NCBI RefSeq assembly: GCF_002571385.2
Contig: NW_019217964.1
Span: 408,179 to 468,787, forward strand
From: Stylophora pistillata
Lineage: Eukaryota
DNA: 60,609 bases
Direction: 5' to 3'
Shown here: one piece after another, positions 3,254 through 5,831 of the stretch
How the letters are laid out: each line of letters starts with the position of its first letter
Position numbering within the stretch: position 1 is the first letter of the stretch
Made by a program: the position numbers and the translations under genes
The notes under the pieces: model-generated
Told to the model about the DNA's origin: nothing
The model's database searches: none
What the model saw: the letters and a program-made list of their open reading frames with translations, nothing else

Positions 3254-5513
3254 TAGGTAATCAACGATTATTCCTCAGCAATTGGTCTCTCCTTCACTAT
3301 ATTTCGCCGAAGTATACAGATTTTAAAAGTATGAATTTCCTACGGTTCTCAGCGATTCGTTACTGAGAGAGAGGCGAAGGTAGAAAACTACAAAATGTTG
3401 CTGTGGATTAAGACTTTTACATCACAATAGAGACTCAAACTGAAGATCAATTTACATTCCACATCTATCAACACCTAATTGTCCTCAGCTGGTCACAGCC
3501 CTGGAGGCTTTTTTATTCGAGTGCCATAAGTCTGATGGATTTAAAGGTTTCAGCGTTAATCACACGCAATAAAGCGTACAACGTTGTGTTGTTATCAGCT
3601 CTCGAGTGCAATATTGCTTCAAAAACGATAATACGATCTTTTGTTCATTAATGTATTGCTGGCTGTAGCGAGAGCGGAACACTACTTTTTTTTAATTACA
3701 GAAAAAAACAGACATTTTTGTTTCCAGTCTGTATACACATGTTTCATGATGTTTGTATTGGATCCGATTTTGCTTACAATTTAATGAAAATATGTCTTAG
3801 AATTTTCTATCCACCTTTAAGAGAGACTCGGCGGATAGCAGGCATTCTTTTCAATTCTGTGCAATTAGAAGATTAGCGGTTAAGAACAATTTAGTGCATT
3901 TGCATTGAAAAAGAGAGGGTTTTAAATAAACCGCTTGAGAATTAACGCTGTCATCAACAGAGTAAACTTGTGTATTTTTGGTTTATATGCTTCCAAATGC
4001 ACGTTAGGTACATTTTTAATATCATTATTCTGATTAAGGAGAAGTCGCTGTTTTTTCTGACGTGTCAGTTCTAGTTTCTTTGCCAATTAACAAATATTGC
4101 ATTCGTGAACAGAGCTTGTTGTATTGTTGTGAGGTGTAAAAAGCTGTTTGCCGAAAGCCTTTCTTCAGAATTTACAGGTTTCTGAATCAATAATAACAAG
4201 TAGCAATGAAATTAACAATAACTAATGCCAGCCTTTAGTGCCAATTCAAACTAAGAACTAAAAGTAATTTTTGATTAAAAAAAAAACATTATGAGAAGGA
4301 AAAATTGTTCCTTTTTCAAGCGCTGCCGATTTCTAATATTTACAGCTGTGCTGATTCAAATAGCAAAACGCCGTAAATTTATGCAAAGAAAATATGTCAA
4401 GAACTGTTGAATGTATTCTGTGCCTGAAAGTGATATAATCCGACCTAATAAGTTTTCATGGTGCCATGAAAAAACCTGAGGATTCTAATACCGTGGATAA
4501 ATGAAGACAAAAAAGGCTTGAATAGTAAACCAATTGAACGTGTAACACTTTTTCCACGATGAGTATATTACACTGGGAGGAGTGGAGTCGGTGACCACTC
4601 CTGATGCATACTATGCCTTCTGGTCTATGAGAGGAGTTACCGCTGGACAGAATATGATTTCGGACTGAGTACACTAAACAAACGAGTGACTGTGCGATCG
4701 AAGGTTTATTAGACATTTCACCGATCTTAAAGAGGTCATCAGTAACATCAACAAAGTAAGTTTTAAGAAGTATCTTTACTTTGGAGTACTACTGAGATTT
4801 TTCTTCATCCAACTGACTTTAACTGTAAACTTATTTGGGAAGATAAGTCTATTGGGTCCACTGCGCAATGAAAAAAGGAACAACTCAGTTTGATAGAGTG
4901 TGATGATTAGATCTTCGTCCAGACTAGTTTGAAATATCGCGCTCATCTCAGTCTCAAATTTCATTATTTCTGTTTATAGATTGTGGCTCGAAAAATGCTA
5001 CAAACCATACATGCTAGTTTTGATCATTTCAGCTATTACAAAACCAAAACAGGGTGAATTTTTCTCGTCACAAACGCGCCACAGATTGTTAATATTTAGT
5101 TCTGAAATTATTATTCAGGACTCTTACAACGAAAAGATTTCCAAGGCAGCTTACGGGCCGCTCATTATGATGCCTCTTTAAAGATTTTCCAGGAAGACAC
5201 TAACAGGTTCGAAAGGGATATTTAATTAAAGTCACAAAAAATAAATATCCTTTGTCGGTAGCTACTGGTATCATGCCACATTTACTTACAAGAACGTCTT
5301 CTAACCGCTGAAAATAACAACATTCTTATCACACTGCAAGAGGGTTAGGATAGTAGCCGTAAACACTATGAATGTGTCTCGATAAAAACAGTGAAATAAT
5401 TTAACTCTTTTGTCTTGAACCCTCGTTCAAGGGTTTTGAACAAGCATAAACTGCATGAATTCAGATATTTTTCACTTCACTTGATTACCAAAATGGTTAT
5501 AAAAAACATGGCT

Positions 5514-5767
5514 ACGTATTTAATACCGCAGTTCAAAATATATGAACTTCACATATTCATTGTATCAGATTTATCATCACGGGTTTGTTACGAATCAACT
5601 TAACGGCCTCCTCCCAGTTGGCTTGTTAGCTCAATTGGTAGAGCGCTGCACTAGTATCGCAGAGGTCAGTGGTTCGAATCCCGTACAGGGGCCAGGTTTT
5701 TTTCAGGTCTGATTTTCGCTACTGCATAAATAGCGCTATCTACTGCGAAGGATCGTGCGTCATACGT
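5514..5767 (+). mobile_element. tRNA-containing short interspersed element, unit-length copy 1
   Basis: Flanked by the 11-bp direct repeat AAAACATGGCT (5503-5513, 5768-5778). Near-identical to copies at 7185, 39078 and 39657. The tRNA-like core is internal. Confidence 0.8.
5620..5693 (+). pseudogene. tRNA-Thr(AGT)-like core of the repeat (probably not a functional tRNA)
   Basis: Acceptor GGCTTGT/ACAGG(GG)CC, D arm GCTC-AATTGGTA-GAGC, anticodon loop CTAGTAT and B-box GGTTCGAATCC. The T stem and the base of the anticodon stem are mismatched. Confidence 0.6.
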
Positions 5768-5831
5768 AAAACATGGCTTTGCTGCCAGAACTGAACTGTA
5801 ATTTCCATGTGCATAATCATGTTTCCCTTAC

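Follow-up and report, generated by a model that had tools for sequence, protein, structure and literature searches.

A 248-bp tRNA-bearing repeat of the coral Stylophora pistillata is probably a non-autonomous, hammerhead-free passenger, copied from tandem RNA by the reverse transcriptase-endonuclease of a Penelope-like element (PLE) that is encoded elsewhere in the genome. That its copying is of the PLE type we hold with considerable confidence. The repeat was found in a 60,609-nt stretch of contig NW_019217964.1 (the window, analysed at its full length), for which a preliminary description had proposed a tRNA-containing unit occurring in circularly permuted registers and copied, in the manner of retrozymes, from a tandem or circular RNA of about 250 nt. 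The apparent permutation is the combined effect of two fixed 3′ ends and random 5′ truncation on a tandem template. Because two sites, here called S1 and S2, account for 159 of 173 clean 3′ ends, whereas 5′ ends are scattered, copies appear permuted and no ribozyme cut site is needed. The variable starts seen earlier are thus real, but free permutation is not. Of the proposed mode of copying, the tandem template (hundreds of near-identical tandem units) and the RNA-type polarity stand, and the ribozyme cut site is superfluous. The passenger explanation is based on comparison with autonomous PLEs of the same genome and with published work on these elements (PMC11167929; PMC8557442).

Copies of the repeat in the window

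Copy 1 (5514-5767, plus strand) comprises the full unit plus 4 nt, running from unit position 2 to position 5 of the next turn with ACGT at both termini; it is 96% identical to the commonest unit and has its 3′ end at S1. It is flanked by an 11-bp target-site duplication (5503-5513 and 5768-5778), and none of 300 random 254-bp intervals of the window had a comparable flank repeat. The copy sits about 65 nt inside an intron that belongs to a minus-strand gene of Spec3/stum-like type. Related exons of this type lie at 2747-3274 and 5833-6270 (minus), the second with a weak Pfam Spec3 match, and the intron adjoins the exon at 5833-6270.

Copies 2 and 3 are back-to-back inverted insertions with outward-facing 3′ ends (in the tRNA sense) and 12-bp duplications. 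The left arm of copy 2 (7185-7350, minus) ends outward at S1 next to the duplication at 7173-7184, and its right arm (7349-7504, plus) ends at S2 next to 7505-7516. Copy 3 is arranged in the same way, with a left arm at 39078-39221 (minus) ending outward at S1, a right arm at 39231-39404 (plus) ending at S2, and the duplication at 39066-39077 and 39405-39416. Copy 4 (39657-39909, plus) has the order B-tRNA-C-A but starts right at the only N of the window (39656) and lacks a flank duplication of its own. Given this start, the lack of a duplication and the near-identity of 39735-40159 to 39231-39655 (3 mismatches over 425 bases), copy 4 probably arose in assembly by duplication of copy 3's right arm and flank, in which case it offers no independent register. 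The three blocks A, B and C of the preliminary description are present, its account of copy 1 as an ACGT-to-ACGT unit with an 11-bp duplication is borne out, and so is its reading of C into A in copies 2 and 3, to which the inverted layout is added here. For copy 4 the B-C-A order stands, but a separate register is doubtful.

The window contains further features of other kinds. Two tandem DM-domain (Dmrt-type) genes were recognized at 13295-13783 and 22458-23069 (minus), with additional parts at 11268-12017 and 16600-17424; the first has a Pfam DM match and the second shows the same cysteine/histidine motif by eye. A decayed piece at 46931-47584 (minus) resembles, by eye, a Penelope-like thumb and GIY-YIG end and has no Pfam match at E 0.01, and broken LINE-type reverse transcriptase pieces with a weak RVT_1 match lie at 56656-58282 (plus). 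A separate tRNA-derived repeat with A and B boxes occurs at 55185-55265 and also near loci L058 and L099. Unrelated tandem repeats were found at 40795-41021 (24 bp, possibly coding), 8285-8434 (75 bp), 15331-15475 (75 bp) and 46368-46532 (about 50 bp).

Structure of the unit

The tRNA-like part, located at 5620-5694 of copy 1 (plus), contains A-box- and B-box-like sequences, which are kept across all subfamilies aligned. It gave an Rfam tRNA match of 34.3 bits in copy 1 (5622-5689), where the acceptor strand carries a 2-nt insertion, and of 45-49 bits in copies 2-4; ARAGORN called a tRNA-Thr(AGT) in copies 2-4 and not in copy 1. Two stem positions are unpaired in every copy shown, and the anticodon is AGT in the unit of this genome and GGT in most relatives. 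A run of seven T (5697-5703), kept in the subfamilies aligned, follows in the loop of hairpin H1. The internal tRNA-like part with its T-run hairpin, as well as all hairpins named in the preliminary description, is therefore confirmed in the unit. Block B (5571-5619), conserved upstream of the tRNA-like part across subfamilies, is predicted to pair with the 3′ half of that part and to mask the cloverleaf (-40.3 vs -22.6 kcal/mol); this pairing comes from single-sequence folding and is absent from the consensus fold.

Copy 1, like about half of the copies sampled, has its 3′ end at site S1 (5761-5767). In tandem register the site would be enclosed by a predicted stem formed by ACTGCG (5742-5747) and CGCAGT (5527-5532) of adjoining units, the latter pairing with the arm of the preceding unit; the stem is invariant because it is part of the search pattern, and it therefore lies outside the covariation test. 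The AT-rich hairpin H3 (5537-5557) separates S1 from S2 (5560-5570), at which the long arms of other copies terminate. Hairpin H2 (5717-5735) has 6 bp and a conserved 7-nt loop.

The hairpins were compared in 49 aligned segments of 59 collected, ten being omitted at our choice as redundant or carrying indels. H2 was paired in 94.8% of cases, falling to 30-43% when the partners were slid, and changes on both sides occurred in five of its six pairs, one position showing four types of pair. These counts are inflated by sequence kinship, yet the swaps follow several subfamilies. The covariation analysis proposed in the preliminary description thus yields one covarying hairpin, H2. In H3, 93.5% of cells were paired and one of seven pairs was altered on both sides, and both H1 and H3 are maintained mainly via one-sided changes. 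Among 24 full units (of 34 collected), the consensus fold retains the cloverleaf, in which one acceptor-stem pair is A-U in some units and U-A in others. None of 200 shuffled sequences folds as well as the monomer (z -5.6). S1 sits 12-17 nt behind one short core even in subfamilies with differing local sequence, and this constant spacing despite divergence suggests that the site is set by position or structure.

No known ribozyme had been recognized in the unit previously, and our searches agree with this. Permissive patterns for the cores of hammerhead, twister, pistol and hairpin ribozymes had zero matches in the unit dimer; the hammerhead patterns, applied to both strands, caught two of three control PLE tails. 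An Rfam search of the dimer at E values up to 10 returned only tRNA and chance snoRNA matches, a weak test in that a control hammerhead was also missed. Relaxed patterns matched the minus strand of two relatives, but the window unit does not share these matches. Blocks A and B were also compared by eye with HDV-like and twister folds, readings that were dropped when the required stems failed to form.

Abundance, arrays and relatives

The 248-bp monomer occurs as single dispersed copies and in arrays of up to 16 or more units. Exact searches with an 18-mer returned 4,649 matches and those with the C-A junction pattern 3,833, both being lower bounds, and the reversed controls gave none; a scored search of the 398-Mb genome gave 216 matches, many at 248-bp spacing. 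Of 109 internal units in the first 39 loci retrieved, 83 were identical, and arrays of 16 or more units reach 99.9% identity. Subfamily arrays at L062 and L093 are uniform throughout. Other arrays carry private variants in part of their units (8 of 10 in L033, alternating units in L052), and some mix units of different subfamilies; the assembly has gaps within arrays.

Coral-type metagenome sequences contain relatives at no fewer than 121 loci, which form several subfamilies; the block order is constant among them, and even distant ones have unit lengths mostly of 242-252 nt. Older subfamilies are also present in the S. pistillata genome. More diverged tRNA-bearing relatives lie at L397:2515-2765, L508:2900-3330 and L300:798-880, the first two with the same back-to-back layout and additional changes in H2; by these sequence relationships the 248-bp repeat is placed in a wider superfamily. 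At L035:2503-2783, a unit has apparently received, at its T-run, the terminal repeat found in a PLE family with hammerheads (as in L504).

Eight RNA runs from two studies, recorded as poly(A) and in four cases labelled as coral metagenome, contain all 28 sampled dimer words, and RNA-library contigs of four runs cover all 30 dimer bins. These contigs give no strand, end or level and have no silent-stretch control, and are not counted as proof of transcription. The literature searched contained no description of the 248-bp family; Repbase, Dfam, the consensus files of PMC8557442 and the bioRxiv supplements lay outside its scope and may contain it.

Insertion ends, arm pairing and duplications

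Ends were mapped in 133 insertions at 115 loci, made up of the 39 best matches to copy 1, 18 loci with the junction pattern and the 58 first-listed loci on contigs C1-C4. The sample is biased to young copies, to copies on large contigs and to those reading C into A, and ends touching gaps or locus edges were excluded. Clean outer 3′ ends fell at S1 in 87 cases, at S2 in 72 and elsewhere in 14, mostly at unit positions 4-8 for S1 and 52-59 for S2, so that the two sites are about 48 nt apart. Outer 5′ ends lay within the same windows in 5 of 41 cases, which is the chance level; these windows were drawn after the data had been seen. The 152 clean 5′ ends, inner junctions included, are spread round the unit with no single cut point. 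The T-run and hairpins confound small piles near positions 107-110, 180-184 and 193-198, and the few ends at the tRNA start form no pile. Another pile, at positions 24-25, was discarded, since several of its members are short inverted arms merged through H3. The plot of starts and ends across copies that the preliminary description had called for therefore shows two 3′ sites and ragged 5′ ends.

Back-to-back insertions mostly pair the two sites. Among 44 clean cases, 38 combine S1 with S2, one has S1 on both arms, one has S2 on both arms and four have an end outside the windows, which gives 38 of 40 classifiable cases (p 5e-10). Duplications of at least 11 bp flank 31 of the 44 (29 of them 12-14 bp, mostly 12), while none of 200 mismatched flank pairs reached 10 bp. 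The motif NTT follows the nick side in 24 of 60 cases, against a background of 0.109. Clean single-orientation copies have a duplication of at least 12 bp in only 6 of 36 cases. Mapped 3′ junctions run directly into the duplication, with no poly(A) or simple-repeat tail.

In 30 of 35 comparisons, the two arms within an insertion are closer to each other than arms taken from separate insertions; the two arms share 9 private alleles, and 68 occur in one arm only. This likeness fits a single template per insertion, and age or conversion may also explain it. At L062 the arms belong to two subfamilies.

Autonomous Penelope-like elements and the search for a partner

The genome is rich in young GIY-YIG elements. 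In family L321, which encodes a reverse transcriptase with C-terminal GIY-YIG and appears Poseidon-like, 19 of 20 back-to-back copies have one long and one short arm, and 18 of 20 have duplications of 12-14 bp. In family L289 (GIY-YIG; likely Neptune-like, judged from its cysteine linker), 17 copies were taken and one had no anchor; of the 16 scored, 11 have a long and a short arm and the remaining five have two short arms or internal deletions, and 8 of the 16 have duplications of 11-12 bp. Across loci L433-L452 and L419-L432, autonomous PLE families follow the long-plus-short rule with duplications of about 12 bp, and their tails measure about 25 and 93 nt. For 22 metagenome relatives chosen for one long arm, the opposite arm was short in 20, and 9 had duplications of 11-16 bp.

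NTT is less frequent in L321 and L289, the two families scored, at 6 of 38 and 2 of 16 sides (Fisher p 0.014 and 0.044, or p 0.22 when restricted to 12-bp cases). This weaker preference is a hint that the partner of the 248-bp repeat is a third PLE family. GIY-YIG and reverse transcriptase searches, together with the 3′ regions of about ten PLE families, gave no partner. A profile of the C-A region run against 214 PLE-bearing loci found no recognizable match in a PLE 3′ UTR; it returned copies of the repeat, older relatives and a few weak matches, and four unclear ones that were inspected contain no PLE tail. This search covered families close to the two queries, with no Naiad or Hydra family among them. 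A search with a variant motif gave 72 matches, and the 12 inspected were all older subfamilies of the repeat. A loose end from the RNA contigs had no genomic match, and the motif was not matched in the metadata available from the supplement of PMC8557442. The PLE tails inspected carry hammerhead-like cores, unlike the 248-bp unit.

Proposed mode of copying and alternatives

We propose that transcription of an array in the tRNA sense would produce a multi-unit RNA, to which a PLE protein, probably as a dimer, would bind at the stem and hairpin around S1 and S2. Nicks would fall on both DNA strands at a distance of about 12 nt, in many cases immediately 5′ of NTT; priming would occur at S1 from one DNA 3′ end and at S2 from the second, probably with a single RNA as template. 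Both cDNAs would then halt at random and be joined head to head, giving copies that end at S1 or S2, start anywhere and look circularly permuted. Several of these features have counterparts in the available text of PMC11167929, where a PLE protein, predicted to be dimeric, cuts each strand and extends it, with a preference for ATT, its reverse transcriptase starts at two internal RNA sites bounding the genomic tail, and hammerhead cleavage is dispensable in vitro. The rule of one S1 and one S2 derives from genomes alone, whereas the in vitro start site was equal for both strands in that text (PMC11167929).

The template was somewhat more probably a linear multimer from tandem master arrays than a monomer circle, given the private variants in part of an array and the units of mixed subfamilies; later DNA turnover or assembly error would also explain such mixed-variant arrays. 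A ribozyme-free retrozyme, in which the unit is inserted by a PLE while the reverse transcriptase rolls round a 248-nt RNA circle, is a doubtful though tenable reading. The circle would be cut from tandem or read-through RNA at the tRNA-like part, by RNase P or Z, or by a novel ribozyme. The near-perfect identity of the longest arrays, the uniformity of those at L062 and L093, the constancy of block order and (mostly) unit length in distant subfamilies, the stable fold and the acceptor-stem switch all speak for it, as do the circles formed by coral hammerhead retrozymes of 220-245 bp (PMC7229834, in the part available). The variants confined to some units of L033 and L052, 152 clean 5′ ends that share no cut point, the lack of a hammerhead core on either dimer strand and the predicted masking of the cloverleaf by block B weigh against it. 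A T-run is a stop signal for RNA polymerase III, and the one behind the tRNA-like part would end such an RNA before S1 and S2, which is a problem for linear and circular templates alike, so that read-through or polymerase II transcripts would be needed. In a more specific and rather unlikely version, the repeat is a retrozyme-like replicon with a tRNA mimic in place of the ribozyme: the T-run would be read through, so that each terminus of the transcript has a tRNA-like fold, host tRNA enzymes would excise the exact 248-nt monomer for circularization, and the PLE enzyme would roll from two sites, one per DNA strand.

Two readings that dispense with a PLE fare worse than copying by such an enzyme. 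Spread at the DNA level, by Helitron- or Helentron-type rolling circles or as a satellite carried by circular DNA, would account for the short dispersed arrays, the uniform units and the many single-orientation copies without duplication; it is very improbable in view of the fixed 3′ and ragged 5′ polarity, the back-to-back arms, the 12-14-bp duplications and the PLE-like ends, and Helitrons are not known to make duplications of this kind. An ordinary tRNA-headed SINE of the form tRNA-C-A, copied by a LINE and multiplied into arrays by later DNA duplication, we consider the most improbable of all. It is consistent with the A- and B-box-like sequences of all aligned subfamilies and with the few 5′ ends at the tRNA start, but the 5′ ends are spread round the unit instead of clustering at the tRNA head, the mapped 3′ junctions have no poly(A) or simple-repeat tail, sequence upstream of the tRNA-like part (block B) is also conserved, and both inverted arms end at fixed 3′ sites, ends that autonomous PLEs of the same genome share. 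Fixed 3′ sites on both inverted arms are also unlike L1 twin priming. The SINE reading is largely refuted by the pairing of S1 with S2.

Comparison with known systems

Several element classes resemble the 248-bp repeat in part. tRNA-derived SINEs have a tRNA-like part with A and B boxes and thousands of copies, as does the 248-bp unit, in which the tRNA-like part is, however, internal and followed by a T-run, with no fixed 5′ end and no LINE-type tail. GIY-YIG PLEs share 5′ truncation, partial tandems, an inverted 5′ arm and a tail at one end, and, in the available parts of the published accounts, two reverse transcriptase starts, an AT-rich target and a TT-containing cut motif (PMC8557442; PMC11167929). 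The 12-bp duplication is common to the unit and the PLEs of this genome. The unit differs from GIY-YIG PLEs in having an internal tRNA-like part and neither an ORF nor a hammerhead, and it shows no likeness to the PLE terminal repeats examined. The accessible text of PMC8557442 describes inverted 5′ PLE copies with a tail of 30-40 bp, often at one end only, compared with about 48 nt here.

Animal non-LTR retrozymes are likewise non-coding tandem units (150-450 bp) in short dispersed arrays, with long duplications, a proposed dependence on PLEs and occurrence in corals, according to the available portions of PMC7229834 and bioRxiv 10.64898/2026.07.22.740005. As characterized there, every retrozyme unit by definition carries a type I hammerhead, which the 248-bp unit lacks, and retrozyme circles have been demonstrated, whereas the 248-bp unit is known from DNA and RNA contigs. 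The SINE-like schistosome Sm-alpha and Sj-alpha elements share tandem repeats and an internal Pol III-type promoter, and an upstream unit can drive the next; unlike the 248-bp unit they carry a hammerhead, and PLE-type ends are not mentioned in the available part of that source (PMC6765202). Non-autonomous PLE passengers are described from Chlamydomonas in the portion of PMC8557442 at hand; those of the Chlamys MRC1 type are multicopy and head-to-tail and belong to a clade lacking canonical hammerheads. They differ in coming from a green alga and in generally having 3′ sequence in common with an autonomous family, which was not found for the 248-bp unit among the 214 PLE-bearing loci searched, and no tRNA part is mentioned in that portion (PMC8557442). 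The 248-bp repeat thus behaves like a non-LTR retrozyme or a Chlamys-type passenger, yet has neither the hammerhead of the former class nor the organization of a SINE.

Significance

The 248-bp family is real and abundant, and we consider it likely to be a tRNA-bearing, hammerhead-free PLE passenger, such passengers as a class being known already. About 20,000 'tRNA' repeats are listed for two corals (PMC12005156). The 248-bp family may inflate coral tRNA counts, its identity with these 'tRNA' repeats being conjectural.

Penelope-like elements are the closest relatives of telomerase. The mechanism behind their tandem and inverted insertions is called undefined in the available text of PMC8557442. 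Thousands of short natural insertions of the 248-bp repeat make a rule readable, namely nicks about 12 nt apart and one of them primed at each RNA site. The one-site-per-strand rule holds in two autonomous families as well, which makes it testable in the existing in vitro system, and the end region of the unit, about 100 nt long, would be a minimal template for such PLE tests.
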